Shown: positions 26,559-54,367 of the stretch, piece after piece
Layout of the letters: every line of letters begins with the position of its first letter
Position numbering within the stretch: position 1 is the first letter of the stretch
Assembly: GCA_038105035.1 (NCBI GenBank)
Contig: JAYOBT010000003.1
Coordinates: 4,379-68,378, forward strand
Source: Candidatus Poseidoniales archaeon
GTDB taxonomy: Archaea; Thermoplasmatota; Poseidoniia; Poseidoniales; Poseidoniaceae
Reading direction: 5' to 3'
DNA length: 64,000 nt
Notes under the pieces: generated by a model
The model's input: the letters and a program-made list of their open reading frames with translations, nothing else
Database searches by the model: none
Told to the model about the DNA's origin: nothing
Program-made: the position numbers and the translations under genes

Positions 26559-26650
26559 ACTAGGGGCTCTCGCTCACAGTATAAGTGCTCATGCATTTTA
26601 CCTGAGTAGCGAATCGACGGATTGATGTGCTGTCCAGTCGAGCGCGGGGC

Positions 26651-29170
26651 ATGAGCAGACTCATGACAATCGTGACCGCATTTCTGTTCCTCAGCGTTCT
26701 TGTGATTCCGCAAGGTGTTTCTGAGGAGACCGCAGATGACGGTGCTACAACACCTTCCATCATCATTTCAGAAGTTCTCGCATCGCCAAATGGGATGAAA
26801 AACAACGAAACGTGCTCGAATTGTTACAACGCAACGGATTGGAACGGTGACGGAGAATACGGAAAATTTTCGGATCAGTTCATTGAATTGCATAACCCAA
26901 CCGACCAAGCCATCAACATCTCAGATTGGGTTTTGGACGATATTGCAGACGGAGGTAGCGCTCCCTGTCAATTGGCACGCAACACGATTCTCCAGCCTGG
27001 AGAATATGTTTCAGTCTTCATCAATGCTTCCCGTATCGAATTGGATTACTACGATGGAGATACCGTGAATCTCTACGATGTCGACGGCACGTTGGTGGAT
27101 TCCTTGTCCTATCCGGACCGTGATTCATGGTACGGGAACTCCTACATTCCACTCGACAATGGGACCATTTGGAAGGTTCGACCACCTACACCGGGCTATG
27201 CTCCAGACGAATCATTCGATGTCGCCCAGAACATGATCGGTTGCTTTGGAATCAGTGACGGTGGATTTGTTGAATCCATGCTCCTCAAAGGTAGAGTCGT
27301 CACCATGAACAACGAAGCTGATGTCATCAACGAAGGTCGTGTCTTGATTCGTGACGGTAAAATTGAGGCTGTGTGGGGTGGAGACAACATTCCACAGAAC
27401 GTCGACCTTACCGATGTTCAAATCGTTGAAACAAACGGTACCATTTACCCGGGATTGATCGATTCGCACAACCACATGCATTACAACCACATTCCTTTGT
27501 GGGATTTCGAGGTCCACACCTCCGTGAAATCAGAGGAAGGCGGTTACTCAAATCGGAACCAGTGGAAGAACAATCCGAACTACAAACGGGACATTTCTTG
27601 GATGAAGACCTTCGTTCAAACCGCTTCGATGTGGAACATGGCCGATCAACAAATGAAGTACGCAGAGGTCATGGCTGTCGCTGGAGGCGTGACGGCTGTC
27701 CAGGGTTCACCCTCAAGCAACACCGACGCTTGGGACAGTATGCTCTCACGAAACATCGAATTGTACAATTTTGGTGGCGATGGCATCCACACCAAGGTGA
27801 CTACCCTTGAATCCGATTATATGGGAAGCCACATCACATCAGGTAACAACAGTGGAAGTTTGAATGCGTGGTACCTCCATCTATCCGAAGGCGTCGATGA
27901 ATCAAGCCGTGCAGAATTCGACATCCTTGTCCAAAACAACCTCTTGGTTGGCGAATTGGTCGTCGTTCATGGGACTGCGCTCACATCTGTTGAATTCCAA
28001 AAGATGGGTGAAGTTGGTGCCGACCTCGCATGGTCGCCACTGTCGAACCTCTTGTTGTACGGAGACACAACCGATGTGGTAGCTGCCGACCAGGCTGGCG
28101 TTCGAATTTCACTCGCACCTGATTGGGGGCCAAGTGGTTCGAAAAATGTTCTCCATGAAATGAAGGTCGCAGATATGTGGAATACGAACAACCTCAATTC
28201 CTACTTCTCTGATTACGACCTTGCTACCATGGTTACGAAAAACCCTGCTCTTGCCAACAACTGGGATGATTCTGTTGGGACCATCAACGCTGGACTCTAC
28301 GCTGATCTTGTCGTTCTGGACACGTTCCACCAAGACCCGTATCGGAACCTTATCGAAGCCATCGATGCAGATGTACGACTGACCATCGTCAACGGACAAC
28401 CTGTCTTTGGTGATGTTGACATCATGGCCGAACTCAAGGGTGACGATTGGGAGCTCGTCGAAGGACCTGGTTTCAACAAGGCAGTGGATGTTACGGATCG
28501 ATCGGTCACTGAAGGAACACAATCTTGGTCAAGCATTCTTGCGGACATGGAGATGGCCATGGCACTCAATTCTGAGGATATTGCTGCAACATGGTCATCG
28601 AGTACGGACAGTTATTCGTCCATGCAAAGCAACGTCTTGAACAACATCTTCACGACTGGCGATACACGTCACTTTGGCATCATTACACAATCCACTCATG
28701 CCAACACCCATATCGATTTGACACAGCTGGAGAATTACTACGAAGTTCCGATGAACAATGGTGAGCGAACTGGGGTGAACGTTGTTCTTGAACCACAAGA
28801 TAACACCGGAGGTTCAACCATCGACCCAGTGGATGAAACTCCAACCGGAGAGACAAATCAAGAAAACGAAACTACTGGTGGGACTGAAACAGGAAGAGAT
28901 TCAGAATGTCCACCAAACTGCATCCTCGGAGAAGATGTCGAAGATGCATCATCTGAAGGTTCTTCCCTCATCGGCCCTCAGTCGCTTCTGATTCTTGTAT
29001 CGTTGTTGCTGCTTGTAGCCATTGGCTTGTTGACAAGAGGAAGTGACGAGGATATGGAAATGGGTGCAGACCAAACGGTCATGATCGAAAACCAATGGCA
29101 AGATGAAACGAAACAATTCGTTCCAGAATTGCCTCCGCTCTCTGCTCCACCTTCTTCGGAAGAAGAGTGA
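26651..29170 (+). CDS. Surface-anchored metal-dependent amidohydrolase: signal peptide, lamin-tail-like (LTD) domain, amidohydrolase domain, Thr/Glu-rich linker and C-terminal TM helix.
   Basis: MSRLMTIVTAFLFLSVLVIPQG signal. LTD-like SDQFIELHNPTDQAINISDWVLDD...LQPGEYVSVF. Amidohydrolase HxH YPGLIDSHNHMHYNH. C-terminal LLILVSLLLLVAIGLLTRGSDED TM plus acidic tail. The track start at 26627 is GTG. Confidence 0.75.
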   Translation: MSRLMTIVTAFLFLSVLVIPQGVSEETADDGATTPSIIISEVLASPNGMKNNETCSNCYNATDWNGDGEYGKFSDQFIELHNPTDQAINISDWVLDDIADGGSAPCQLARNTILQPGEYVSVFINASRIELDYYDGDTVNLYDVDGTLVDSLSYPDRDSWYGNSYIPLDNGTIWKVRPPTPGYAPDESFDVAQNMIGCFGISDGGFVESMLLKGRVVTMNNEADVINEGRVLIRDGKIEAVWGGDNIPQNVDLTDVQIVETNGTIYPGLIDSHNHMHYNHIPLWDFEVHTSVKSEEGGYSNRNQWKNNPNYKRDISWMKTFVQTASMWNMADQQMKYAEVMAVAGGVTAVQGSPSSNTDAWDSMLSRNIELYNFGGDGIHTKVTTLESDYMGSHITSGNNSGSLNAWYLHLSEGVDESSRAEFDILVQNNLLVGELVVVHGTALTSVEFQKMGEVGADLAWSPLSNLLLYGDTTDVVAADQAGVRISLAPDWGPSGSKNVLHEMKVADMWNTNNLNSYFSDYDLATMVTKNPALANNWDDSVGTINAGLYADLVVLDTFHQDPYRNLIEAIDADVRLTIVNGQPVFGDVDIMAELKGDDWELVEGPGFNKAVDVTDRSVTEGTQSWSSILADMEMAMALNSEDIAATWSSSTDSYSSMQSNVLNNIFTTGDTRHFGIITQSTHANTHIDLTQLENYYEVPMNNGERTGVNVVLEPQDNTGGSTIDPVDETPTGETNQENETTGGTETGRDSECPPNCILGEDVEDASSEGSSLIGPQSLLILVSLLLLVAIGLLTRGSDEDMEMGADQTVMIENQWQDETKQFVPELPPLSAPPSSEEE

Positions 29171-36151: not shown

Positions 36152-36196
36152 GGCCATCGTCGCACCTTTCATGTGCAAGAAGGTACAAGCGATAGC

Positions 36197-39100
36197 ATGG
36201 GCGGAGTGCTCAAGCCACGTGTCTTGACCTTGCTTGTACTTGGGCTGATGATTGGATTCAGTCAAATCCCATTGGTTGAACATCATATCGAACTTCCAGA
36301 TGATCAAGAAATCCAACGGAGTGGTTCAGATCCAGGTGTAACCGACCTACCCTCTTGGAGAGTTGGCGACAAGTGGATTTATTCTGGAACGTTTGACCCA
36401 TCCATTCTCATCACTGACACAGGCGTATCCGCAAACGTGGGTGAAATCCGTGGAGATGCAACTGCAGAAGTCATCGATATTCTGGAACTTCAATTCGATA
36501 ACGGAACCGAATGGGTCTACAAACTGCGGATGTCTGCTGATTTTGACAAAAGCGGTGTCGAACTTGAAGGGTTTACTGGGAACGCAGAGATTGAATTCAC
36601 ACAAACCGAATATTTGCGAGTGAGCGACTTTGCGACTGTGAAGAACGACCTTGATTTGTACATCAAATTCATTCCGTACGGTATCGGGTCACTGACACAA
36701 ATCCTCGGTGACATCACCATTACCAACGAATACAGCCCTGCTACAGAAGCCTACGATTTCCCACTTCGGTATGGTGAACGATGGACTTCATTGACGACTG
36801 CTTCATCGCAATGGTCTGGACAAAGCGATTACATAACGCCGTTTCCCCCTCCAGAAACAGATACCAACACAACGACATGGGAAGTTACGGATGTTGGACA
36901 ACCTCGGAACGCAATTGGAGCTGGAATCGCTTACAGTGGATGCGATGCATCCTATGAACTGACATCATGGAACTCCGACGGCGTCTCGACAGGTTACCGT
37001 TGGTATTGCCCGGCTGTCAACAATTACGCATGGCGACATGCAGAAGAGGACGTTGGTCTGACCATCGATTTCCGATTGAAACAATACATGCCAGTTGGAG
37101 CAACGGGGGTTGAAAGCAACAGCGACCCAGGTACTCGAGCAACATGTGTTGATGTCGCTCCTGAACGTTCCCTGACAGCGCTTGATTCCCCTCTCGAAGT
37201 ATGGGTCCATCTTAGCCCATCTTGCTATGGAACAATCGACGGAGTTGGTGTTGAGATAGCATACGATGGCACCTCAACCACCGTTAACACGGCTTCAAAC
37301 GGTTCTGCCAGCACGACCATTGACTCGGGCAGCAGCATTGACTATTCAGCAACGAATACGGATTGGTCCAGTCATGGCATCATGGCAAAATCTGGAAGTT
37401 ACGTCGGTGCAGCCACCATCACGCTCGACGAGTATCTTGTTGGGCTGGACTTGATTGCGGATGAGGAGAGAGCCGTCATTATCCGAAATAGGAGTGGCGT
37501 GGTCAGTACTGTGAGTTCCCTTTCGGGTTACAATGTACTCCCGGGTGATGATTTGACCATCGAGGTCGCTGTTGTCAACAAAGGCATCACGACTTCGGCA
37601 GCGACTGATTTACGCATCTATCATCCAGATGGTTCCATCTTTGATCTTGGACTACCACCGCTCTCTACATACGAATCGCATAAGGTGAATTTCACTTGGA
37701 CGGTTCCCGCCGATGCAGCGATTGGAACTTTACCGATTCGTTGGGAATCAGACCCACTACAAGTCAATTCAGCAGATGCGGACGCCGACAACGATCTTGG
37801 AGAAATTGAGTTGTTCATTGGACGCTTACCAACAGCAGTACTCGAACCCATCGAGATCTACACGAACGTCGAGACGATGATCAACGCCTCTGGTAGTTTC
37901 GATGAAGATGGTGGAAATGTTTCCTGCCTGTTCAACGTTCCTTGGTATGACGGTACTCGTACCGCTGCATGGACGAGGGTTGAATCAATCGACTGTATGC
38001 TGAACTGGACATGGACGAACGATGGAGAATACCCCATCGAGGTCACCATAACCGATGAAGAACAAGACCAAGTTGAAGCCATCCTTGATGTTGTTATCTT
38101 GAATCGAGCTCCGAACATCGAAGTCATAAGTGCCCGCAACGAGGTGAAGGTCGAATACCCCGTGACATTGTATGCTTATGCAAACGACACAGACTCCGAG
38201 GACCCATTCCCCGGAATTGTGGATGTGTATTGGCCAAATGCAATCTGTGAAGAGGGGTACTACACCCGTGTTTGCACAACAACCGCTCCAACCGAAGGAT
38301 GGCACACCTTCCAAGCCGTAGGTGTCGACGATGACAGTGCCATGACCATGGCAAGCATCGACATCCGATTTACCAACATCAACCCTCACGGGCTATCCGT
38401 CACCATGACCAATGCGAGTGGGCCTCTGCCTCTCGATGTTCAGCAAACCTGGCATGTTCAAGAAGATCAGGTCGTCAACCTTCGTGGACAAGCGCTCGAT
38501 TCTATCGATGATTTGGATGGCCTGACTCACCGCTGGTGGCCTGATGATGCACAGCCAAATCTCATCAAGACGTTCGATGGACGTGTCTCGGAATTTGAAA
38601 TGATGTGGGAAACATCTGGGCTGCACCGAATGCGACTCGAAGTCAGCGACTCGGAAGGAGCCAGCAGTGGTACGTACGAGCGATGGGTGAGCGTTGCAAA
38701 CGTTCCACCGGTCGTTCAACCATTGCAGGAAGTGCTCCCACTTGCGGAAGGGGAAGAAGTTCGCTTGGTCGGTAATGCAACCGATACAGCCTCCGATTAC
38801 GATACCTTGATTCGATGCTGGGACGTAGATCCTGGTCTCGATTCCAATGACATTGGAGGTGCTGATGATGACTGTGATGTGGTTGGTGATGAGCTGATTT
38901 GGCACTGGAATACGAGCGGAACACACACTGTCATCTATCACGTAACCGATGATGATGGAGTTCGTGTCAGTGAGATTCTCTCTATCGATGTCCTCAACAT
39001 TCCACCCATCGTTCGGACAAAGGACATCGTTTGCAACGCACTCGAATCCTGTCTCCTCGATGCTACTGGAACGATTGACTCGATGAATGACCTCGACCAA

Positions 39101-39697
39101 ATCACAGTTGTTTGGGATCTTGACACATCCATTGACAGCAATGGGGATGGGGTAAAAGACAACGATGCCGACAAAATTGGAAAACAAATAGAGCATGTGT
39201 TTACCCGTCAAGGGTCCTACACAATCCGAGTACTTGCTTGGGATGAGAATCCAGAACGACCCGGAACTCGGGTTATCAATGTTGAAATTGGTGCACCCGA
39301 ACGCACCATCGTTGAGGATTTAGGCGCTGCACTCATTGGAGAAGAGGCAAATCCTGTCGCACAACTCTCCTTGCTCACGTTCATGCTTCTCACGTTGGCT
39401 ATGATGACCAGACGTAGGCGCTCAGGCCGGCAACAACGAGCGATGGAGCGACTCGACCAGCAGCAAAATGCAATTTTCAGCGATGAAGAAGTCGGTCTGA
39501 TGCCACATGAAATTTCTGCCCGTCGCAATCGCCCACAAGATCCTCCTGTTGAGCGGGCGTTTGATTCTGTTGATAGGAATCCTGCATCATTGAATGGACC
39601 TCCAATCCCGGAATCCGGATTGCCTGACGGATGGACAATGGAACAATGGGGATACTATGGTCAACAATGGTTGGACTCACAACTTGACAATGGCTAA
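36197..39697 (+). CDS. Giant type-I surface protein A (about 1166 aa): signal peptide, conserved about 280-aa N-terminal domain, PKD-like repeats, C-terminal TM helix and conserved cytoplasmic tail.
   Basis: MGGVLKPRVLTLLVLGLMIGFSQ signal at ATG 36197 (track start at 36173 is GTG). PSWRVGDKWIY and GCDASYELTSWNSDGVSTGYRWYCPAV are shared with the downstream paralogue. PKD-like modules (ASGSFDEDGG...W.W.DG). C-terminus LLTFMLLTLAMMTRRRRSGRQQR ... GPPIPESGLPDGWTMEQWGYYGQQWLD. Confidence 0.85.
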   Translation: MGGVLKPRVLTLLVLGLMIGFSQIPLVEHHIELPDDQEIQRSGSDPGVTDLPSWRVGDKWIYSGTFDPSILITDTGVSANVGEIRGDATAEVIDILELQFDNGTEWVYKLRMSADFDKSGVELEGFTGNAEIEFTQTEYLRVSDFATVKNDLDLYIKFIPYGIGSLTQILGDITITNEYSPATEAYDFPLRYGERWTSLTTASSQWSGQSDYITPFPPPETDTNTTTWEVTDVGQPRNAIGAGIAYSGCDASYELTSWNSDGVSTGYRWYCPAVNNYAWRHAEEDVGLTIDFRLKQYMPVGATGVESNSDPGTRATCVDVAPERSLTALDSPLEVWVHLSPSCYGTIDGVGVEIAYDGTSTTVNTASNGSASTTIDSGSSIDYSATNTDWSSHGIMAKSGSYVGAATITLDEYLVGLDLIADEERAVIIRNRSGVVSTVSSLSGYNVLPGDDLTIEVAVVNKGITTSAATDLRIYHPDGSIFDLGLPPLSTYESHKVNFTWTVPADAAIGTLPIRWESDPLQVNSADADADNDLGEIELFIGRLPTAVLEPIEIYTNVETMINASGSFDEDGGNVSCLFNVPWYDGTRTAAWTRVESIDCMLNWTWTNDGEYPIEVTITDEEQDQVEAILDVVILNRAPNIEVISARNEVKVEYPVTLYAYANDTDSEDPFPGIVDVYWPNAICEEGYYTRVCTTTAPTEGWHTFQAVGVDDDSAMTMASIDIRFTNINPHGLSVTMTNASGPLPLDVQQTWHVQEDQVVNLRGQALDSIDDLDGLTHRWWPDDAQPNLIKTFDGRVSEFEMMWETSGLHRMRLEVSDSEGASSGTYERWVSVANVPPVVQPLQEVLPLAEGEEVRLVGNATDTASDYDTLIRCWDVDPGLDSNDIGGADDDCDVVGDELIWHWNTSGTHTVIYHVTDDDGVRVSEILSIDVLNIPPIVRTKDIVCNALESCLLDATGTIDSMNDLDQITVVWDLDTSIDSNGDGVKDNDADKIGKQIEHVFTRQGSYTIRVLAWDENPERPGTRVINVEIGAPERTIVEDLGAALIGEEANPVAQLSLLTFMLLTLAMMTRRRRSGRQQRAMERLDQQQNAIFSDEEVGLMPHEISARRNRPQDPPVERAFDSVDRNPASLNGPPIPESGLPDGWTMEQWGYYGQQWLDSQLDNG

Positions 39698-39721: not shown

Positions 39722-42700
39722 ATGGCGAACCGCATTCTTGCACTGCTTGTTTTGTTTCTCATGGCAGGTTCATCTGCCGTGCACGTTGTCAGCAACAACA
39801 CAACGGAACTCGACGAACTGCCAACCATTGAGCAATCCTCGGGTACGACAAGCTCCACAGATGTGCCAAGTTGGCGTATAGGTGACAAATGGACCTATGA
39901 GACACAATTTGATGTTTCTCAGCTGCTTGCACAAGCCAACGTATCTGCAAGCCTCAACACATTAACCGGAGATACTGTTTACGAGATTGATGACATCTTC
40001 TTCATCAATGTTGACGGAATCCAAACCCTTGCCTACAAGATGCTCATTGAAGGAGAATTCTCATCAGGAAACAATGGCGCTACGCTTGAAGGCGTGAGTG
40101 GAAGACTCGACATTGATTACTCTGGAGAGGACATCGTTCGAGTTCGAGATCTCGCAGTCATCAATTCGGAATTTGAATTGGACGTCGACTTTGCACCATT
40201 CAATCTTGGCTTCTTATCTCAGAAATTAGCCACAATATCATTTGACACCTACTACGATCCACCCAAAGAAAAATACGATTTCCCAATGAGAACGGGTGAC
40301 CAATGGTACATGCCCTTCATGTCGGGGACCAGTGTAAGCGGCTCATCGGATTACTTTGACCCAACGTCGTTTGATACACAAGGGGCTGAAAACACATCTT
40401 GGCAGGTCACCAAAGATGGTATTCCGACCGAAGACGGACAGAATATCAAATACGAAGGCTGTGATGATTCCTACAAGATCAACGAATGGAACGCTACTGG
40501 TGTAAGTGCTGGATTCAATTGGTATTGTCCAGCTGTTCGATTCAACTCTTGGATTCGAATCTCAAACGCTGCTGGATTCACGATTGATTGGCTGTTGAAA
40601 GATTACGAGCCTGTTGATTCGTTCGGCGTTGACAAGAGGAAGAACCCCGGTGGCAGAAACGTCGATATCGAGGTTGAAACACAATTCATCGCAACATTAC
40701 CAGATTCAATGTCAAAAATTTACGCAACATACTCGGTCGCTCCCAATGGCATTCCCGAGGTCAACAAAAACCTCCAATTGCGTTACGAAATGGCGGGAAC
40801 GCTGATCAATCCAACCACCAACGGTAGCGGACAGATTGAAGAAACAATCAACGTTTCAAATGTCGTTGATGACACGATTGCTAGCGACGATTTTAGCAGC
40901 AATGGCGTGATTGTCTGGGATCCAGTCCAGGAAATTATTGGCGTTGCTACAGTCGTCATCGACTTGTCTGTTGTGGGCATCGATTTGGTTGCTCAGGAAG
41001 ATTCCATCATCGTCACACGAACACGCAACGGAGAAGTTGCTACACTCTCCAAATCAATCGGCTACAACGCATTGCCTGGTGACGAACTTTCGTTCTCCTT
41101 GCCAGCCCAAAACAGAGGTGTTTTGCCGTCCCCTTCAACTGAAATGGAAATCGTCGTACCAGATGGTGATTCAAGCCGACAGGCTGTTCCATCCATCGAT
41201 GCATACAGTGAGCAACGAATTGTCATCGACTGGATTGTACCCGAGGAAACCACCATCGGCAATCAAACACTGACGTTCACCGTCGACCCAGATGAACTGA
41301 TCACAGGAGATGCCAATCGAAGCAACAACCAAGCAACAGTTGACGTCTTTATCGGTCGTGCCCCGAATGCCTCCATCTCCATAGATACTGGAAATTACAC
41401 ATTCGAGAACGTCTTGATTGACGCCCGGTCCTCTTTCGATCCTGACGGTGGGGACGTAGAGTGCCGATTTGAAATCGAGTCTCGACCAGGTCTTGTCGAT
41501 GTTATCACAACACCAGACTGTGCCATGAATTGGAACTGGTCCGACGATGGTGACTGGGAGATACGGACTGTTGTCACAGACGATGAGCTTGATACAACTG
41601 TATTGATCAGCAATGTCACCATCTTAAACAGAGCACCGTACATCAACCTCAGTCACCCGGCAGAAGTTGCTGTCGAATCCTCGATTACCATTGATGCAAG
41701 TGAAAGTGGAGACCTCGATACAATATCTCCATCGGGCCAGCAGGTCAGTGTATCTTGGCCTGATTTGAATTGTATCGAAGGGTTAACCCAACCGACGTGT
41801 ACATTCACGCCACTTGAAGAGGGTACGATGCCGATCCGTGCCATTGCAACCGATGACGATGGTGAGGAAACCGAAGTGCTCTCATCGATTGAAGTTCTCA
41901 ATGTCGCCCCGACCATTGGAGAAATAGGCGTGTGGATTTCAGGCGTAAACACGCCCTTCGATGCAAACGGAACGTGGATACTACAAGAAGATCAAACGGT
42001 TATCTTGCGCGCTCAAGGCGATGATACGCTCAACGACCGTGACGGACTTATCATCGATTGGAACCTCAGCGATGTTCTCGATAATCTCACCGTTTCAACC
42101 GATGGATCAGCCTCAGATGTTGCAACTTCATGGCCGACGTCAGGTGAACATATCATCTCAGTTCGAGCTGTCGATGATGATGGAGCAACTTCTTCGACAT
42201 CCCTGGCAAAAGTCACGATTGTCAACGTACCTCCAACCATGACCGCTGAAGCAAATTTCCTCAATGCTGTCAACAATGGCATCACAGTATCTGAAGACGA
42301 CAAAGTGGTCTTCGACGTCGCTGTCGATGACACCGCTTCCGACAAGGATTCATTGGAAGTTTGCTGGGATATTGATGGAACACGAGATGCAGATCTTGAT
42401 GGAACCCTAAACAACGATTGCGATGTGAGTGGTACTCATTTTGAATACACATGGGAAACCAGCAATCCTCAGTTCCAAACCGTGACGGCATGGGTGAAAG
42501 ATGACGATGGGGCCATGGCTTCAATCTCTGCTGTGGTGAAGGTTCAGAACGTGTTGCCAAGCGCTGAAATTTCGTTTGCGAATGGTTCGCTCGACAATTT
42601 GGTCAAGGGCGATACGCTCAATCTCACGTCTGATGGGACCTTTGACTCAGACTCGGACATTTTGAATATGCTCTACGTCTGGAAATTTGAATGGAGAGGC

Positions 42701-43306
42701 GAAAGCGACTTGGGAGAAACAGGCCCTGTTGTATCCATTGCAAATTTGCCAGTAGGTACATGGGACGTCAACCTCACTGTTACAGATGATGATCTAGCGT
42801 CTTCTACCACGACCATTACCATCGTTGTTTCAGAACCACCTCCTGAAGGATTCCTTGAGGAATTCAGCGATACACTGGGCGTGTCTCAGACCATGTCGAT
42901 TGTCATCATAGGCCTCGTTGTTTTGGTGATCGTGTTGGCATCGTTCCTCTTGGTCACTCGTCGTTCACCTCCGGATTTGGTCGAAACACCGTCAAACAAA
43001 GCATGGGATACAACTCCGTTACCGAGTTACGAACCCTCGGAAATGCCTGCATATGGACAGCCTGCACAACAAGCCCCTGCACAACCTGAACCCATCGCTG
43101 AGCAGCCTGTCACGAATCAAGGGCCACCACTTCCAGCCACTGGTCTACCGGCTGGTTGGACCATGGAACAATGGGCGTATTATGGTGAGCAGTACCTTGC
43201 TGCAAACCAAGCACCTGCACCCACCTATCAACCGACACCTTCAATGACTACACCATCGCCTCAGAATACGAATCTGTCCGACCTACTGGATGATTTGGAC
43301 CTGTGA
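39722..43306 (+). CDS. Giant type-I surface protein B (1194 aa), a tandem paralogue of protein A.
   Basis: MANRILALLVLFLMAGSSAVHV signal. PSWRIGDKWTY and GCDDSYKINEWNATGVSAGFNWYCPAV. PKD-like modules (ARSSFDPDGGDVECRF...W.W.DG). C-terminus IVIIGLVVLVIVLASFLLVTRRSPPD ... GPPLPATGLPAGWTMEQWAYYGEQYLA. Starts 24 nt after the protein A stop. Confidence 0.85.
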   Translation: MANRILALLVLFLMAGSSAVHVVSNNTTELDELPTIEQSSGTTSSTDVPSWRIGDKWTYETQFDVSQLLAQANVSASLNTLTGDTVYEIDDIFFINVDGIQTLAYKMLIEGEFSSGNNGATLEGVSGRLDIDYSGEDIVRVRDLAVINSEFELDVDFAPFNLGFLSQKLATISFDTYYDPPKEKYDFPMRTGDQWYMPFMSGTSVSGSSDYFDPTSFDTQGAENTSWQVTKDGIPTEDGQNIKYEGCDDSYKINEWNATGVSAGFNWYCPAVRFNSWIRISNAAGFTIDWLLKDYEPVDSFGVDKRKNPGGRNVDIEVETQFIATLPDSMSKIYATYSVAPNGIPEVNKNLQLRYEMAGTLINPTTNGSGQIEETINVSNVVDDTIASDDFSSNGVIVWDPVQEIIGVATVVIDLSVVGIDLVAQEDSIIVTRTRNGEVATLSKSIGYNALPGDELSFSLPAQNRGVLPSPSTEMEIVVPDGDSSRQAVPSIDAYSEQRIVIDWIVPEETTIGNQTLTFTVDPDELITGDANRSNNQATVDVFIGRAPNASISIDTGNYTFENVLIDARSSFDPDGGDVECRFEIESRPGLVDVITTPDCAMNWNWSDDGDWEIRTVVTDDELDTTVLISNVTILNRAPYINLSHPAEVAVESSITIDASESGDLDTISPSGQQVSVSWPDLNCIEGLTQPTCTFTPLEEGTMPIRAIATDDDGEETEVLSSIEVLNVAPTIGEIGVWISGVNTPFDANGTWILQEDQTVILRAQGDDTLNDRDGLIIDWNLSDVLDNLTVSTDGSASDVATSWPTSGEHIISVRAVDDDGATSSTSLAKVTIVNVPPTMTAEANFLNAVNNGITVSEDDKVVFDVAVDDTASDKDSLEVCWDIDGTRDADLDGTLNNDCDVSGTHFEYTWETSNPQFQTVTAWVKDDDGAMASISAVVKVQNVLPSAEISFANGSLDNLVKGDTLNLTSDGTFDSDSDILNMLYVWKFEWRGESDLGETGPVVSIANLPVGTWDVNLTVTDDDLASSTTTITIVVSEPPPEGFLEEFSDTLGVSQTMSIVIIGLVVLVIVLASFLLVTRRSPPDLVETPSNKAWDTTPLPSYEPSEMPAYGQPAQQAPAQPEPIAEQPVTNQGPPLPATGLPAGWTMEQWAYYGEQYLAANQAPAPTYQPTPSMTTPSPQNTNLSDLLDDLDL

Positions 43307-43311
43307 TAGCA

Positions 43312-43863
43312 ATGGGAAATCTTTGGCAGTTCTTTGGACTCCCCGACCCTGATGCAGGCGGCGTAGCTCGAGTTACCGAGGCACCAGCCACTGCGCAGAG
43401 AAGTCAATTGTCCAGTGAACCTGTTGAAGCAGTAACACAAGTTGTTGAAGAGACGCTAGAACCTCCAACTGACAGGCCCACGACGTTTGAGTGGAATGGA
43501 CCAGTGACTCCTGACGGACAGCCATTTCATGATCTGTCTCAACATAATGGACGGATTCTGATTCGACCGACACGCGCACTACGTTATGTTAAACCAGATG
43601 AAAAACATCGCATCCACACAAGAGACATCGCTCAACGAGTGTTGCAGGGAGATACGGTGATTGTTGATCTAAGGACGTTGGTCCACATGGAATCCCATCA
43701 ACAGGCCTGTCGACGAGAATTACGAGTTATGTGTGAACAAGTTGGTGTTGGCGTGTTTGCCTTGGATTCGGAGGATAAGTTGCTTATGATTCCAGGGGCT
43801 GATGTCGTTGTTGACATCGAAAAGCACGAACTTGGACTCACACGATTGCTTAACGTATCCTGA
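43312..43863 (+). CDS. sepF: Cell division protein SepF (FtsZ-anchoring), archaeal type.
   Basis: The C-terminal domain aligns with the SepF pattern: ILIRPTRALRYVKPDE..DTVIVDLRTL....ACRRELRVMCEQVGVGVFALDSEDKLLMIPGADVVV (compare bacterial VVVNL...AKRIVDFLSGTVYAI.GDIQRIG.DIFLCTP). ATG at 43312 is 6 nt after the upstream stop. The track start at 43303 is GTG. Confidence 0.72.
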   Translation: MGNLWQFFGLPDPDAGGVARVTEAPATAQRSQLSSEPVEAVTQVVEETLEPPTDRPTTFEWNGPVTPDGQPFHDLSQHNGRILIRPTRALRYVKPDEKHRIHTRDIAQRVLQGDTVIVDLRTLVHMESHQQACRRELRVMCEQVGVGVFALDSEDKLLMIPGADVVVDIEKHELGLTRLLNVS

Positions 43864-45810: not shown

Positions 45811-46530
45811 ATGGACATCATGGAACGAATTCCCACACACGTTGAAGGACTCGATGAGAACATGCAAGGTGGCATTCCAAAGGGACATATCTGCATCGTC
45901 GCAGGTGCATCCGGTGCAATGAAGTCGAGTGTTACGTTCTCAATGCTTTACAACGCAGTCTTGTACGGGGAAACGAGTGGAATTTACGTCACGCTTGAAC
46001 AAGGAAAAGATTCCTTGCGGGCACACATGTCCAACATGGGTATGAACGTTGACGACGCTCGTGTGCGCAACCGTATTGCAATTATTGATTTATCAGACCT
46101 TCGCGTTCAACTCGACGAACAAGGGATGAGCAATCGTGTTGATTGGATGGGTCAGCTGATTAAGCAACTCACAAACTACAGAAAATCCATTGGCTTCGAA
46201 CTCCTTGTTTTCGACTCGCTTGGTGCGTTCTTCACACTCACCAAAATGGAGAATCCTCGTGATGAGATCTTCAGACTTTTCGAAGCAGTACGTCGTCTCG
46301 AACTTACTTCCTTCTTCATTTGTGAAATGACCGGTGAAAATCACAGGCAATTTGGTGAGTATGGCGTAGAAGATTATCTCTCTGACGGCGTTATTCACCT
46401 TGTTATGGATCGCAAAGAGGACGATGTACAACGAAAACTCGGCATCATTAAGATGCGTCACACTCGGCATGCACTGGGTTACAAGCCTTTCAATTGGAAA
46501 CAAGAAGAACAGCGATTTACTGTTCTTTGA
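45811..46530 (+). CDS. Single-domain KaiC/RecA-superfamily ATPase (archaeal KaiC-like).
   Basis: THVEGLDENMQGGIPKGHICIVAGASGAMKSS is the KaiC-like N-terminal loop plus Walker A. Walker B LLVFDSL. About 240 aa, typical of archaeal KaiC-like regulators. Confidence 0.72.
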   Translation: MDIMERIPTHVEGLDENMQGGIPKGHICIVAGASGAMKSSVTFSMLYNAVLYGETSGIYVTLEQGKDSLRAHMSNMGMNVDDARVRNRIAIIDLSDLRVQLDEQGMSNRVDWMGQLIKQLTNYRKSIGFELLVFDSLGAFFTLTKMENPRDEIFRLFEAVRRLELTSFFICEMTGENHRQFGEYGVEDYLSDGVIHLVMDRKEDDVQRKLGIIKMRHTRHALGYKPFNWKQEEQRFTVL

Positions 46531-48357: not shown

Positions 48358-51300
48358 TCAAAGATTGAATTTTTCCGAACAAATCGGGCAGGTGACTTGA
48401 GCTCGCATCAAATCCGTCACAGGGAAATTGGCATTGCATGAAGGGCAGACAGCTTGCCGCCGAAGAGGTGGCAAATCTGCTAACGGTGGAAGCGCACCAG
48501 GTTCGAGTTCAGCCACTGGTAGAGGAGGTAGGCCTTCTGCGACAGGAATGGAAGGCAATGGTGCTGGGTTCGGTAATGGAGGGAGCCCTTTAGAAACAAT
48601 ATCTGCAATTTCACGATCCTGTTTTCTCTTCATGCGGCGATTGAGTCGTGCATTCCCTTCCCCAGCAATGCTCTTGGCTTCAAGTTCTTCTGCAAGTGTG
48701 GGTTCTTCCATCTCAACCTGCACTGGAGGACTTATTGGTACTGTAGCGACTAGTTCTTCCTCTTCGTCGTCTTCCTCTACGTGTACGAGAATGGCAACTT
48801 CATCTTCCTCAAGGACGTCTGCGTCGACAACATCTTCTTTTTTGCCAGAACGAAGAGAGATGACCACGAGAACGAACAGAATGAAAAGGACTGAAATCAG
48901 ACCAAGGAAAATCCTCACCTTCATTTTGTCCGACCCTGGAAGAGGTTCAAGCAGTTGCTCAAGCAGGGACTTTGCTTCCCCTGCATCTTGTTCCTCATCG
49001 AGGAGGAATTTCTGCATAGAAAAACGTCCTGTTTCAGATACGAGGAACAGAATTCCGTCTTGAGCATTCATACTGTATCCGAGAACCCCGTTCTCAGATA
49101 CAATGTTTCCAAGACCAAATACGGGTTGCTCTTTTTCACTTGTCAGAATTCCATAACGAGCTACTTTTCCACGGACTGTGATTTCATCGTAAATGACCTC
49201 GACCATATCGTTACGTTGGTTGTACAAGACAATGGATGCGCCTGGTGCCTGAACACGATACATCTCCTCGTCCCAATCTCCTTGGGTCGCTATCGTAACA
49301 ATCTCCGCATTTTGACCAGAACCTTCAATCCATGAGGCAAAAATGGTCTTATCGTTATCGATTGTTAGTATCGCAATTTGAGCAGAGAATGCGTCATCTC
49401 CAATCGAAGACTGGTACGACCATGAAGTCGACATGAGATCACCTCTTGCATACATCAAGCCACTTCGCTCGACTCCGGTTACATCGTCTCGTTCCTGTTG
49501 GAAGAGAATATGCAAGACTTCGTCATCGAGTACGGTCGACAACTTGTCACCATCATCGGGATGAATCTCGACGTTTGCGAGATGCGTCTTTGGCTCACTC
49601 CAACTCGCACCCTCATCGGGAGTGGAAGAATACAAACTGAAAATCGAGGTGACATCACTCCATGAGCCACCCGTGGAAATATTACGGTAGTATCCTGACA
49701 AAACCATTGTTCCATCATCCTCGGCCAAATCAAGTCCCCAATATTTGCCCTCGGAAATTTTCAGTGGCGTGAGGTGCTTGTGTATGGGAAGCATCTGCCC
49801 TGCAGAAGAAAAAGAAGTCATAGCAACATTGCTCATGAAGTATCCTTGCTCGCTTTGTTCTCTGCTCGTCCAAGCAGCATGCACCAACCCGTCTTCTCTA
49901 AGGTGAACGTCAAGTTCTCCTTCCCAGTTATCCTCGACGAGTGTGTCTGTCAGGAGCAAAAGATTGTCGTTCAAAGATCGAACGTGAAGTTCTCCGTCAA
50001 TCGATGTAAACACGAGCGTTGAGGATTCTACGCCGACAAAAGCAACAGGGAATTCGCCATCGGATAAGGAAAGCGTGGTTGAACCTGCAACGGTTGATAC
50101 ATCGCTCACTACAACACTGAACGTTGTCTGACTGAATTCGCTTTCGACACCATCTCCCGTAAGTGTAGCACGGTACAATACCGCGCCGATCTCATCTGAT
50201 TGATGTCTAAAGTCAACGGTGGTGTATCCGGATTCACTGGTAGCACCTGGAACGAAACCAATTCGTTCTTCATCAATAAGTTGCCATCCAGCCTCAGGAA
50301 TCCAATACTCAAGTGCTATGTCAAGAGAGAATGCTTCGGATTTGCCAAGGTTGTCAATCCGTAGGTCAATTCTGTATTCTTCATCCACTAAGGGGACGAC
50401 TGGCAAGGTCGTAACGAAGCCAGGCAAGTAGCGTAGTACGGGTTGATCTGGTCGTTCCAAAATTTCGTAATCGATGGTGTACACATTGTCCGAGGTATCA
50501 GGGTCACCTTGTGCGTTGTTCGGATCCAGTTCAATCTGAACTTGATGCAACCCTGCAACGGTCGCAGACCAAAACAACGTGACTTGGACTGATTCTCCTT
50601 TTGGCAGATCAGGAATGAGGCCTTGCGAAGGATAGATTTCAGATTCATCCCCCGGAGCAACCAGTCGAACAAAGATATCCGAGGCATCAGCATCACCTGC
50701 ATTGTAGACCTCAAACTTGATCTCAAGTAAACTTCCTTGATACGCCTCTTCTGCTGGCATGCCGCGATTCAGCACCTCAAAATCACCAACAAATCGCAAC
50801 GATGGCGCAGGGTCAACGTTGTCGATTGTGTAACTCCTTTGAACGATTTTTGATTCTTTTCCGGAGTTGTTCACCATGCGTACAGAGAGTTCTCTGAATC
50901 CATCATCAACTTCGGTTGTATCCCAGTTGAACGACCAAACTGACTTCCCATCTTCGCCTGGATTGTTATTGGTTTGAATTGTACTACCAAACAACCATTC
51001 GCCATCATCGACACGGTACTCGATTCGATCATGCTCCACGCCTTCAACTTCTCCTTTGACTTCAACCGTACCTGTCAAGGAGTTTCGCGAGATGGGCGTA
51101 TCTATCAGGATACTTTCTCGAGAAACCTTGAACTTGCGATAAGCCACGTTGGAAACGTTTCCATCATCGTCGGAGGCTTTAGCATGTAGAAGTAAGAACT
51201 TCTCATTCGAGCTATAATCGACCCATGAATCTTGAACTTCAACATCGAGGAACCAACTTTCCATGGTACCATTGGCTTCAGTCCAATCCAGCAGCATCTT

Positions 51301-53205
51301 TGGACCACGATTGTTGAAATGTTGCTCAATGTACACCTCAACACGTTGATAGGCGATTTCGGTCATGTTGACTTCCCCTGAAATGCGAGTGAATGAATCG
51401 CTCAGCAACCACGTTCCATTGGAAGGATAACTTACGTTGACATCGCTCTTTGATTCTTTCACTACGAACCCGTTGTCGCATGGAACGCCCTCGATTGAAT
51501 TCACGGCACATGCTGCGTCGATGATTCCAAATCCGTACTTTTCATTCCATCTCTCGGACAAGGTTTCGTCGTATGGGTCTCCTCTTTGTTCGGAACTGTT
51601 TCGAAGAATATCCTTTACTTCCTGAGGGCTGAGGGACGAATCGGCTTCCAACATGAGCGCAACAATTCCCGAAGCAATCGGAGTGGCCATGCTCGTCCCT
51701 GACTTCGAATCGTATTGGTCGTCCGCAAGACCCGTATCTCCCGGTATCGGTAATGATGTTCCGTAGGTCGCTGAGATAATGTTGTGGCCATACGATGTGA
51801 TGTCTGGTTTGAGTTCATCCCATTCATCATCATCTCCATCGCTAATTCGTGGGCCCCAATTTGAGAAATCAGAATGCTCGTCGTCATCGCGTAGGATTGT
51901 GTTCTTGTCGTTGACTGAGCCGACTGTGATTGCACCGTCTGCACTTCCAGGGGACGGTACTCTGTTGCTACCATCGTTACCGATGGCTACAACACAGATG
52001 ATACCTTCAGCAGTGGCTTGGTTAATGAGTGATGCCTCAGCGCTTGTTCCATTATCCCCCTGATCGCCTGCATTAAGAGGAGTCCCCACAGAGCCGTACG
52101 ACATGGATGCGACCTGAATACCACGGTATGTCGAGTTGATGCCCCAGTCCGTATCCTTGTTGTTGATCATCCATTGGATTCCAGCTAAACTCGCTTGCGA
52201 ATTGGTTCCACCGCTGTCTGTTAAGACCTTGATATCAACCAAAGCAGCACCAGGAGCAGTTCCTCTGTGAGTACGGGTTGTATCGCCTGTGCCCAATGCA
52301 GAACCTGCTACGTGCGTTCCGTGACCGTTTCCATCGTCTGGATCGGCGGAGCCATCTGGATTCGGATTTGGAGAAGTCGCATCAAAACCTGCGACCCACT
52401 TCTGGTCGCTGTAAGTTGATGCATCTGCATCGGGTGCATCATCGATGTCATCAAAATCATTGAGGGAACGATGTTCATTATCGACACCAGTGTCCATCAC
52501 TGCAATAACGACCCCTGTTCCATAGTAACCCAACTCATGTGCTGTGTTTCCGTATTCCTGTGAAGGACGTGCCAGTGCTGCTTTTGAAGCAACATCGTTC
52601 AATGGAGCCATGACGTTTTGCATCTCAACAACGACAACTCCCTCAAGGTGATAAATATCCATGAGAGCGGATACAGGGACCTTGTCGACAACGATGCTGT
52701 CAATACTCCGCAGTACTTCGAACCAAGCGCCATTCTCAATACCAATCCAACCATGGGCATCGAGCGTTGTCTTCAGAGAAGTGATCTCTGGCTCTGAAGG
52801 ATGCCACGCGTAATCGACGACGATAGCCACCGTTTTGCGACCATCTGGGCCAATGATGGCCGTAGGTGACGCTGAATCCATGCCGTCAAGAACACGCTGT
52901 AGTCGATCATCCATCCCATTCCAGTCAAGGTCTGGACCGTAGGCCTGCCACCATCCGTAATCCAAGGAAGCGGCTCGACCTTGACGGTCGTACATTCGAA
53001 GTGGGCGGTCGCACAACTCATCACCACACATGAGTGGAGGGAGCCCTTCGACCATAATCGGAGGCGCATGTGTAGGTTCTTGCACCTCAGGAAGCGTTTC
53101 TATTGCCTGAACTTGTGATGCCATAGGCAACAAAAGCATGAGCAAAACCAAGAACAATGCCTGCCTTGGATTCGAATAACGAGACCTTCCGCTCATAATC
53201 GCCAT
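48358..53205 (-). CDS. Giant (1615 aa) membrane-anchored subtilisin-like serine peptidase (S8). It has C-terminal beta-rich domains, a TM helix, a poly-acidic stretch, GLPPLP repeats and a terminal C4 zinc ribbon.
   Basis: Signal MAIMSGRSRYSNPRQALFLVLLMLLLPMASQVQA. Catalytic triad motifs VIAVMDTGVD (Asp), HGTHVAGS (His), GTSMATPIASG (Ser). C-terminus GLISVLFILFVLVVISLRSGKKED (TM), EEDEVAILVHVEEDDEEEE, KGLPPLPNPAPLPSIPVAEGLPPLPVAELEPGALPPLADLPPL, CPSCNANFPVTDLMRAQVTCPIC. Confidence 0.9.
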   Translation of the reverse strand: MAIMSGRSRYSNPRQALFLVLLMLLLPMASQVQAIETLPEVQEPTHAPPIMVEGLPPLMCGDELCDRPLRMYDRQGRAASLDYGWWQAYGPDLDWNGMDDRLQRVLDGMDSASPTAIIGPDGRKTVAIVVDYAWHPSEPEITSLKTTLDAHGWIGIENGAWFEVLRSIDSIVVDKVPVSALMDIYHLEGVVVVEMQNVMAPLNDVASKAALARPSQEYGNTAHELGYYGTGVVIAVMDTGVDNEHRSLNDFDDIDDAPDADASTYSDQKWVAGFDATSPNPNPDGSADPDDGNGHGTHVAGSALGTGDTTRTHRGTAPGAALVDIKVLTDSGGTNSQASLAGIQWMINNKDTDWGINSTYRGIQVASMSYGSVGTPLNAGDQGDNGTSAEASLINQATAEGIICVVAIGNDGSNRVPSPGSADGAITVGSVNDKNTILRDDDEHSDFSNWGPRISDGDDDEWDELKPDITSYGHNIISATYGTSLPIPGDTGLADDQYDSKSGTSMATPIASGIVALMLEADSSLSPQEVKDILRNSSEQRGDPYDETLSERWNEKYGFGIIDAACAVNSIEGVPCDNGFVVKESKSDVNVSYPSNGTWLLSDSFTRISGEVNMTEIAYQRVEVYIEQHFNNRGPKMLLDWTEANGTMESWFLDVEVQDSWVDYSSNEKFLLLHAKASDDDGNVSNVAYRKFKVSRESILIDTPISRNSLTGTVEVKGEVEGVEHDRIEYRVDDGEWLFGSTIQTNNNPGEDGKSVWSFNWDTTEVDDGFRELSVRMVNNSGKESKIVQRSYTIDNVDPAPSLRFVGDFEVLNRGMPAEEAYQGSLLEIKFEVYNAGDADASDIFVRLVAPGDESEIYPSQGLIPDLPKGESVQVTLFWSATVAGLHQVQIELDPNNAQGDPDTSDNVYTIDYEILERPDQPVLRYLPGFVTTLPVVPLVDEEYRIDLRIDNLGKSEAFSLDIALEYWIPEAGWQLIDEERIGFVPGATSESGYTTVDFRHQSDEIGAVLYRATLTGDGVESEFSQTTFSVVVSDVSTVAGSTTLSLSDGEFPVAFVGVESSTLVFTSIDGELHVRSLNDNLLLLTDTLVEDNWEGELDVHLREDGLVHAAWTSREQSEQGYFMSNVAMTSFSSAGQMLPIHKHLTPLKISEGKYWGLDLAEDDGTMVLSGYYRNISTGGSWSDVTSIFSLYSSTPDEGASWSEPKTHLANVEIHPDDGDKLSTVLDDEVLHILFQQERDDVTGVERSGLMYARGDLMSTSWSYQSSIGDDAFSAQIAILTIDNDKTIFASWIEGSGQNAEIVTIATQGDWDEEMYRVQAPGASIVLYNQRNDMVEVIYDEITVRGKVARYGILTSEKEQPVFGLGNIVSENGVLGYSMNAQDGILFLVSETGRFSMQKFLLDEEQDAGEAKSLLEQLLEPLPGSDKMKVRIFLGLISVLFILFVLVVISLRSGKKEDVVDADVLEEDEVAILVHVEEDDEEEELVATVPISPPVQVEMEEPTLAEELEAKSIAGEGNARLNRRMKRKQDREIADIVSKGLPPLPNPAPLPSIPVAEGLPPLPVAELEPGALPPLADLPPLRRQAVCPSCNANFPVTDLMRAQVTCPICSEKFNL

Positions 53206-53266: not shown

Positions 53267-54367
53267 TTATCCATGCTTTGGCCAGGACAGATGTTTCGGT
53301 TCTTTTGAGCATTGAAGTTGAGGCCCTGTACGGCGCTCGACCATACCTAGTGGAGCCAAACATACAGGGCAGTCTCCTGCTTCTGCAATATGTTCCATCC
53401 ACGCTATTCGGGTTTCTGCCTCATCTCCTGCTTCCTTGAGTTTTCGCAATGGTTCGCGCAAGTTCTTGGGGACATCGAGTCCGAGTTCTGTCCAAGGGTC
53501 GTCAATATCGGACACGTCGACCATCGATGATTTAATTTGATCAAATCCTGCTCTTGAATTACCGAATCCTTTGGGGCCTCCATCGACAACACCCATCGGA
53601 TAAGGCCCCCCTCTTGCGACGAGGGGAAGCAATGCATAGGCAGCGACGAACCCTCCGATGTGTGCCATGTGGGCAACTGTGGAATATCCTCCGAGGCCAA
53701 CCGTATTGAACGCTCGAATCAACTCAAATCCAAAATAAAACAAGGCTATGATGGTAACTGGCCATGGTCGAATCAGAATGAGTGGGAACGGGATTTCGTC
53801 CCGAGGCCAACCAGAAAGATAGGCTCCAAGTAGGCCATATGCTGCACCAGACGCTCCCCAAGATGGTGTTCCTGAGCCACTGTTGAAGAGGACCCAGGCA
53901 ATTGAACCTCCGAGCAATCCTGTCACATAGACGATTGTGAACCGTTTTGTGCCCAACCGCTGCTCAAGTGGAATTCCAACCAAGGCGATGACAAGGACGT
54001 TTCCAAGAACGTGGGTCACGTCGCTCATACTGTGTAGGAAGCCTGCTGTGAACAGGGTTGGGTAATAGACAACGGAATTCAATCGTTCAGGAATCAACCA
54101 AAAATCAAACCACACAAAGCGGAATTCAAGACCGTACGAAGCCATCACAACAAAGGCATACTGGACAATGTAACCCAACAATAATCCAACGGAAATCCCC
54201 AGTGCAATCGGTGTCTTATTGCGGAATGAGTAAGCAATTGGAGACACAACTGCGAAAATCCACAAGCACAAGATGATCCATTCAGAGGCTCCGAATGTTG
54301 TAAGATACAACTGCCCCATACATCCCCGACCATTTGCTCGACTATGGGTCTTGTCCTGTCGTAGCAT
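53267..54367 (-). CDS. Rhomboid-family intramembrane serine protease with a C-terminal cytoplasmic Cys-rich (zinc-ribbon-like) extension.
   Basis: GASGAAYGLLGAYL (GxSG catalytic Ser) and AHIGGFVAAYAL (catalytic His) in TM helices. C-terminal CPVCLAPLGMVERRTGPQLQCSKEPKH. It lies 61 nt upstream of, and co-oriented with, the S8 subtilase. Confidence 0.85.
   Translation of the reverse strand: MLRQDKTHSRANGRGCMGQLYLTTFGASEWIILCLWIFAVVSPIAYSFRNKTPIALGISVGLLLGYIVQYAFVVMASYGLEFRFVWFDFWLIPERLNSVVYYPTLFTAGFLHSMSDVTHVLGNVLVIALVGIPLEQRLGTKRFTIVYVTGLLGGSIAWVLFNSGSGTPSWGASGAAYGLLGAYLSGWPRDEIPFPLILIRPWPVTIIALFYFGFELIRAFNTVGLGGYSTVAHMAHIGGFVAAYALLPLVARGGPYPMGVVDGGPKGFGNSRAGFDQIKSSMVDVSDIDDPWTELGLDVPKNLREPLRKLKEAGDEAETRIAWMEHIAEAGDCPVCLAPLGMVERRTGPQLQCSKEPKHLSWPKHG

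Follow-up and report, generated by a model that had tools for sequence, protein, structure and literature searches.

A conserved C-terminal tag on many unrelated surface proteins of one lineage is a feature of the PGF-CTERM/archaeosortase, PEP-CTERM, LPXTG, and GlyGly-CTERM/rhombosortase systems; in all of these, the motif is followed by a transmembrane (TM) helix and a short basic tail, and cleavage occurs outside or within the membrane. Here, we describe a different arrangement in a 64,000-nucleotide stretch of DNA (the window) from a Candidatus Poseidoniales archaeon (GenBank assembly GCA_038105035.1, contig JAYOBT010000003.1, positions 4,379 to 68,378 of the forward strand). Two large surface proteins encoded side by side in this window, here called A and B, have in their tails a common element of ~29 residues (the A/B tag, or module), and, unlike the PGF-CTERM-type signals, they have the TM helix first; basic residues and a long linker separate it from the motif, which is placed on the cytoplasmic side. 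All feature coordinates given below are positions in the window.

The best documented, and by our comparison closest, functional analog of the tag is found in Myxococcus GltJ and related bacterial proteins, in which cytosolic zinc ribbon (ZnR)-linker-GYF modules on single-pass envelope proteins recruit the AglZ Pro-rich sequence, MglA, and MglB (PMC11135422). The relationship would be one of analogy rather than membership. Common to both are small cytosolic adaptor modules on flexible linkers of single-pass envelope proteins. GltJ has a zinc ribbon together with an aromatic domain for Pro recognition; the counterparts in the window are a putative zinc ribbon that ends the tail of an S8 subtilase, and the aromatic module that lies next to PPxP on the A and B tails. 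However, no GYF domain is detectable here, the A and B tails have no zinc ribbon, and the modules are spread over different proteins; most of them are at the C-terminus of type-I proteins, a GYF domain is twice as large as the 29-residue module, and the lineage is archaeal. The S8 tail, with a putative zinc ribbon and a linker and no GYF domain, is not a GltJ-like ZnR-linker-GYF switch. Eukaryotic adhesion-receptor and sorting tails (integrin NPxY, cadherin-catenin, and acidic/aromatic sorting tails) similarly present short conserved docking motifs on the disordered cytoplasmic tails of type-I proteins, although these have no sequence relationship to the tag and the analogy is of logic only.

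Poseidoniales, also known as Marine Group II (MGII), are among the most abundant microbes of the surface ocean and are uncultured, and to our knowledge almost nothing is known about how the MGII envelope is built and organized. The string GWTMEQW, which lies at the center of the A/B tag, does not occur in the literature that we searched, in which the motif is undescribed and nothing relevant to MGII surface proteins was found.

A conserved module in the tails of proteins A and B

Protein A (36173-39697, forward strand; 1174 residues) has a signal peptide, an ectodomain with PKD and CARDB domains, a single TM helix, and a cytoplasmic tail, as judged from Pfam matches and the translation. Protein B (39722-43306, forward; 1194 residues) has the same Pfam matches and is a tandem paralog of A along its full length. 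In A, the C-terminal TM helix PVAQLSLLTFMLLTLAMMT (39353-39409, forward) is followed by the basic stop-transfer RRRRSGRQQR and a weakly conserved linker (39410-39595, forward), and then by the tail module GPPIPESGLPDGWTMEQWGYYGQQWLDSQ (39596-39682, forward), which is predicted to be helical from the M of TMEQW. The layout in B is equivalent, with a TM helix (42893-42955, forward), basic residues and a Pro/Ala/Gln-rich linker (42956-43120, forward), and the module GPPLPATGLPAGWTMEQWAYYGEQYLAAN (43121-43207, forward). The two modules have in common the pattern GPP[IL]PxxGLPxGWTMEQWxYYGxQ[WY]L, and the heptamer GWTMEQW occurs twice in the six-frame translation of the window, where 7e-6 occurrences are expected by chance.

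Pairwise comparison of B orthologs gives a mean identity of 81% for the motif, against 21% for the linker and 54% for the ectodomain. The A and B motifs are identical at 19 of 29 residues, and 11 of these 19 are encoded by different codons, which argues for selection on the peptide and not for recent gene conversion. Across 219 unique variants, the consensus reads G-P-P-[LIV]-P-x-x-G-L-P-x-G-W-T-M-E-Q-W-x-[YH]-Y-G-[QE]-Q-[WY]-L-[DAE]-x-[QN], with 13 positions ~100% conserved. By these comparisons, the element is under purifying selection.

Spread of the tag over unrelated surface proteins

To judge modularity, we relied on a genome scan and a full HMMER scan, as word-index searches with short tail queries returned short open reading frame (ORF) fragments only. 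An alignment of the motif, scanned against GTDB with each species represented by one genome, matched at least 597 stretches, of which at least 519 were confirmed as relatives; the locus-level results given here and below refer to the best 80 of these. All of the 80 loci are from Poseidoniales, including both Poseidoniaceae and Thalassarchaeaceae, apart from one record labeled Verrucomicrobiales. A profile search of 1.84 billion protein-cluster representatives yielded 634 matches at E≤1e-3, 286 of them at E≤1e-10.

The 106 carriers encoded in the 80 loci group into ~10 ectodomain clusters, among which are the A/B family, a second family of ~1100-1200 residues, TSP3-repeat/propeller proteins, and a 366-residue protein. 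Another carrier is a different S8 subtilase (L018_1) whose tail has GLPP repeats and then the motif. We considered whether L018_1 is an ortholog of the window S8 subtilase and rejected this, as the two are 27% identical and the identity is confined to the catalytic domain; a module swap inside one orthologous group is thus not demonstrated. In the carriers of the 80 loci, the motif is always C-terminal to a single TM helix, and the linker between them is 19-142 residues long (median, 60), with Pro, Ala, Glu, and Ser the commonest residues; the motif starts 18-86 residues from the C-terminus.

The A and B copies might be regarded as a remnant retained in tandem duplicates, since these proteins are paralogs over their whole length. 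Such simple paralogy is refuted by the ~10 unrelated ectodomain clusters and by the motif being conserved to a much greater degree than the remainder of the tail; synonymous sites, moreover, have diverged, and we consider paralogy very improbable. The initial annotation of the window, made from its sequence without database searches, had supposed that the motif reaches beyond simple paralogy, and the motif database search bears this out in both Poseidoniales families. We therefore take the A/B tail element to be a modular cytoplasmic tag of ~29 residues on unrelated Poseidoniales surface proteins, present in both families of the order and matching nothing in the libraries searched.

GPPIS or GLPP repeats occur additionally in many carrier linkers. 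Further short motifs are conserved in the linkers of other carrier families (L012, L021, L022, L037, and L066; P0162, P0227, and P0243; P0179, P0233, P0241, and P0253): 'ANSMYGG[SAT]xx[LI]F', 'DGYEDN[LI][ST]ATYGAV', and a repeated 'SGPPISGPPIS'. The only viral match, 'PDGWTMEKWLYY', was judged to be a chance resemblance inside a probable phage portal protein; this is an 816-residue ORF on a viral contig (L081, 58-2508), in which 'IPDGWTMEKWLYY' lies in a seemingly globular region.

Membrane side of the tag

The tails had been placed in the cytoplasm by the positive-inside rule, and the larger set of carriers agrees with this placement. In 79 of 89 carriers, the 12 residues that follow the TM helix contain more lysine and arginine than the 12 that precede it (means, 2.66 versus 0.19), and an N-terminal signal-like segment is present in 73 of the 74 full-length carriers. 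A further carrier, P0250 (775 residues; L082, 4001-6328; on Tara and NCBI contigs), is without a signal peptide, and an in-frame stop lies 21 codons ahead of its start. Its parts, in order, are a SAP-like segment, the motif, a very acidic linker, a single TM helix, and, at the C-terminus, a large domain, such that the motif is N-terminal to the TM helix and more than 100 residues away from it. P0250 is a type-II membrane protein, and the signal segment, the charge bias, and P0250 together put the motif on the cytoplasmic side in either protein orientation. The cytoplasmic SAP-like segment beside the P0250 motif (a weak Pfam match) would be a possible DNA-binding module on a membrane protein.

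The same observations bear on whether the Trp/Tyr-rich sequences are extracellular wall-binding or choline-binding repeats, which they resemble and which would require the opposite topology. A weak Choline_bind_1 match (E=0.09) to the tail of a third window protein, of 1697 residues, is in favor of this; yet a signal peptide and a single TM helix force the C-terminus to the inside, the charge bias and the type-II carrier agree, and the Pfam matches are below threshold, leaving this reading with very little probability.

Comparison with sorting signals

The annotation had suggested that the tails are not PGF-CTERM, PEF-CTERM, or an already named sorting domain, and library searches are in accord. 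Neither Pfam nor NCBIfam matched the A, B, or 1697-residue protein tails, even with the TM helix added; the sole exception is a match of the B tail to the NCBIfam GltJ model NF033761, at 21 bits against a cutoff of 450, which is probably compositional. No NCBIfam/TIGRFAM sorting-signal model matched the TM-plus-tail sequences (E≤1) or the tails alone (E≤10). PGF-CTERM, PEF-CTERM, and other archaeosortase/exosortase signals were rejected, as tails of 86-190 residues follow the TM helix in the window proteins and the motif of the carriers lies 19-142 residues behind the helix. That the motif may also sit N-terminally, as in P0250, argues against a classical C-terminal sorting signal.

Predicted fold and comparison with known domains

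AlphaFold2 modeling of the A tail gave predicted local distance difference test (pLDDT) values of 77-89 for the motif, with a helix that starts exactly behind the conserved Thr. The module is thus predicted to consist of a Pro segment, a GLPxGW turn, and an N-capped aromatic helix; in our reading, W-T-M-E-Q-W fits a helix that is N-capped by the T and has a hydrophobic staple made by its two W residues. From our own reading of the variant alignment, the variable positions 7, 11, 15, and 18 of the module fall on one narrow helical stripe, which suggests that most of the helix surface is constrained.

Searches of PDB sequences gave no significant match to the module. The best matches in a PDB profile search were WW domains, not significant and only over GLPxGW (~10 residues), as with Itch 'SSGLPEGWEM' (E=0.19). 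WW domains form a three-stranded sheet of ~35-40 residues, with two Trp residues at a distance of 20-22 residues and a Pro at the C-terminal end. Their first strand has the same 'GLPxGW' sequence as the start of the module's aromatic part, and PPLP-type sequences are associated in both cases; however, the rest of the A/B module is predicted to be helical. We rejected a WW domain (PF00397) because of the predicted helix, the lack of a Pfam match, and PDB matches that have E≥0.19 and cover GLPxGW only. GYF domains have a beta-beta-alpha-beta-beta fold of ~60 residues and the signature GPF-x4-M-x2-W-x3-GYF, and by eye the pattern G-x6-M-x2-W-x3-G is also seen in the A/B module; GYF (PF02213/GYF_2) was rejected, with no Pfam match at E≤10 and a module of ~29 residues without predicted strands.

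The PP-fold miniproteins and Trp-cage are similar to the module in having an N-terminal Pro segment, a turn, and an aromatic amphipathic helix at comparable length, and 'GPxxP...' and '...QQ[YW]L' can be matched by eye. They differ in that there is no structural match, and in that PP-fold proteins are secreted hormones whereas the module is in a cytoplasmic tail; homology to PP/NPY/PYY was rejected (hhalign probability, 0.1%). This comparison bears on the notion of homotypic clustering, in which the Pro segment of one tail would bind the aromatic helix of another, or the helices would dimerize in PP-fold manner, and different surface proteins would be knitted into patches on the cytoplasmic side. 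One module does hold both a PPxP ligand-like segment and an aromatic helix, the GPPIS/GLPP repeats add further segments to many linkers, and unrelated carriers of one genome have identical sequences, as mutual recognition demands. Nevertheless, there is no profile similarity to PP-fold hormones, a third-party partner accounts for the same conservation, and we consider homotypic clustering unlikely.

The predicted helix could alternatively fold back onto the inner leaflet as an in-plane anchor or curvature sensor. The helix GWTMEQWGYYGQQWLD is rich in interfacial residues (three W, two Y, L, and M), its Wimley-White interfacial sum is estimated, by our own hand summation, at about -3 kcal/mol before the helix-formation term, and the flexible linker permits fold-back. 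Membrane-surface helices usually keep a pattern and not residue identity, however, and the module has essentially invariant T, E, Q, and two Gly residues together with the upstream GPPxP..GLPxG, and varies on one narrow helix stripe only. In the type-II carrier, moreover, the motif is separated from the TM helix by more than 100 residues and a very acidic linker. An in-plane anchor thus has a low probability in our estimation, similar to that of homotypic clustering.

A candidate docking handle

The near-invariant polar and Gly positions, the single variable stripe, the disordered linkers to unrelated proteins, and the independence of orientation together favor recognition by a common partner over generic physical chemistry. 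In Poseidoniales, a disordered linker of ~20-140 residues, rich in Pro, Ala, and acidic residues, tethers the tag to the sole membrane anchor of many unrelated surface proteins. We suggest that the tag serves as a docking handle, which either a single conserved partner in the cytoplasm or the inner face of a scaffold would recognize. Surface proteins would in this way be coupled, clustered, or positioned from the inside. We put the chance that the tag is such a common docking handle at about even, its function being what we infer from conservation and placement.

Several points count against this docking proposal. Fold searches with the module model found no structural relative, and that model was built on six sequences only. 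Binding to the membrane interface, or self-association, would be just as feasible for an aromatic amphipathic helix. The neighborhoods of the 80 loci have no gene that recurs beside unrelated carrier families, and the survey named no partner for the tag. The limitation of the tag to Poseidoniales is not proven, as it comes from the best 80 of at least 519 loci, and in these uncultured archaea the tag is known from sequences alone.

A near-invariant tag on unrelated proteins would imply that some partner inside the cell deals with surface proteins collectively, and the GltJ type of organization, with cytosolic adaptor modules on envelope-spanning proteins, would be extended to archaea. The tag may also serve as a simple annotation marker for membrane-anchored surface proteins of MGII.

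Tails of the 1697-residue protein and the S8 subtilase

The initial annotation had grouped the A and B tails with those of the 1697-residue protein and the S8 subtilase, proposing one tail code for all four, and much of its description is accurate. The coordinates and sequences of the four tails are as it gave them, and each protein has the single TM helix, basic stop-transfer, and long tail that it described: all four start with a hydrophobic signal and have a large ectodomain, and their only TM helix near the C-terminus is followed by basic residues and a tail of 86-190 residues. A single code does not hold, however, as there are three different terminal modules and the A/B element is found in A and B only. 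The four tails thus have a common architecture (TM helix, basic stretch, disordered linker, and conserved terminal module) with three kinds of ending.

The 1697-residue type-I surface protein (11649-16742, reverse strand) has its C-terminal TM helix at 11925-11987, a spacer RNATV at 11910-11924, a juxtamembrane acidic-aromatic motif RRGSKSEYEWDEYS at 11841-11909 (together 11841-11987, reverse), and a Trp-rich terminal module at 11652-11753 (reverse), predicted to be a small antiparallel beta-meander and thus unlike the A/B module. It had been called 'MAM-like', a label without Pfam support; the sole Pfam match is a sub-threshold Reelin_subrepeat-B. Its tail had also been presented as a third copy of the aromatic repeat, but in orthologs down to 42% identity the 'DGWT' of the window is not conserved and reads 'TDWV', in the ortholog pattern 'TDWVMGSDGYWWYHDK..NEWWYKDANGEIV'. 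The conserved terminal module is instead [DT][DG]W[VT]xG[SA]DGYWW[YW]HDKxxNEWWYKDANGEIV, and we regard it, from these alignments, as a separate Trp-rich module and not the A/B motif. The same annotation read this tail as choline-binding. Matches to the choline-binding family (PF01473) are sub-threshold, with a best E of 0.09 and matches in 6 of 28 ortholog tails, and the window copy matches Choline_bind_4 at E=3 only; we rejected this assignment. Also conserved in the orthologs (P0005-P0124, down to 42% identity) is a juxtamembrane GSKxEY[DE]WDEYS followed by an acidic run.

The S8 subtilase (48358-53205, reverse; 1615 residues) is likewise type-I, with Peptidase_S8, CARDB, and Big_7 as its ectodomain Pfam matches and a C-terminal TM helix at 48853-48918 (reverse). 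Its tail has a conserved basic segment GEGNARLNRRMKRKQDRE (48610-48663, reverse), the Pro-rich repeats GLPPLP, GLPPLP, ALPPLA, and DLPPL (48463-48588, reverse), and a putative CxxC...CxxC zinc ribbon at the end (48361-48447, reverse). The four LPPL-type repeats and paired CxxC that had been pointed out in this tail are indeed present, and the basic segment, the repeats, and the terminal CxxC-x17-CxxC are all kept in orthologs (38-39% identity); the A/B aromatic motif is absent from it. Against the zinc-ribbon profile PF13717 (Zn_ribbon_4/MJ0042), five of six tails score 20-23 bits (E=9e-5 to 6e-4), which is below the cutoff of 30.3, and in four of the six tails the alignment spans nearly the whole profile.

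Similar CxxC...CxxC ends are seen on two other tail families among MGII ORFs (L066 and L076, 555-558 residues; L040, 150 residues). The L076 ORF is single-pass, and its 77-residue post-TM tail closes with the ribbon; the C-terminus of the L066 ORF is closely similar. Putative zinc-ribbon tail ends are therefore not confined to a single protein family. A fifth type-I surface protein of the window (26627-29170, forward; 847 residues), with an LTD (Lamin-tail domain) and an amidohydrolase domain, has a 45-residue cytoplasmic tail (29033-29167, forward) with PELPPLSAPP and no terminal module.

These other tails would then be built to the same architecture as those of A and B with different ends, a Trp-rich beta-meander in one and a zinc ribbon behind PPLP-type repeats in the other. 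On a wider view, Poseidoniales may have a eukaryote-like Pro-recognition adaptor system under the membrane that ties the surface proteome to an internal scaffold or to the division machinery, with the GW-EQW Pro-helix tag, the Trp-rich beta-meander, the zinc ribbons, and the PPLP-type repeats as interchangeable adaptor modules. On these probably wall-less cells, such a system would control the location, clustering, and shedding of adhesins and hydrolases. We offer this as a speculation that is unlikely to hold.

Genes adjacent to the carriers

The gene immediately after B (43303-43863, forward) adjoins B in ~30 loci, one of them from Thalassarchaeaceae. Its product has an N-terminal MGNLWQFFGLPDP, a variable linker with an invariant WxGPxTPDGEPFHDL, and a conserved C-terminal core. 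By eye this is a SepF-like layout, and the resemblance is weak at best: Pfam SepF (PF04472) matches 1 of 10 orthologs (E=0.0076), searches of the PDB, including solved SepF structures, gave no match with the single sequence or with a profile, and SepF identity could not be confirmed.

At its extreme C-terminus, B has an acidic peptide, LSDLLDDLDL (43274-43303, forward), which is kept in B orthologs; in the B family (B orthologs, L003-L071) it is a second conserved peptide, LxSLLDDLD[LF], at the very C-terminus behind a variable spacer. Archaeal FtsZ C-terminal domains center on a GID motif (PMC8178401), to which the terminal LLDDLDL of B has no resemblance, and mimicry of an FtsZ tail was dropped.

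The S8 gene is immediately preceded, on its own strand, by a rhomboid protease gene (53267-54367, reverse; Pfam E=1.3e-22), whose product has a C-terminal extension containing CPVC...C. Rhomboids cut single-pass proteins inside the TM helix, and the rhomboid beside S8 could shed the surface proteins. This proximity is in keeping with a further explanation for the tag, that it is a recognition signal for an enzyme, be it for processing, for turnover, or for the quality control of stubs left in the membrane, as by rhomboid shedding, or that it targets proteins for membrane insertion. Very high identity is typical of enzyme recognition tags, and the element is usually 18-86 residues from the C-terminus. 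Set against this, a position 20-140 residues after the TM helix is unlike that of all known sorting signals, N-terminal placement in the type-II protein makes a strictly C-terminal signal unlikely, and a dedicated enzyme gene linked to the carriers was not found in the 80 loci; an enzyme signal is improbable in our judgment, more so than either an in-plane anchor or homotypic clustering.

Between the B and S8 genes lies a gene for a KaiC-like ATPase (45811-46530, forward; Pfam E=6e-46), whose product is 82-89% identical across loci, whereas the neighboring genes are just 40-60% identical.

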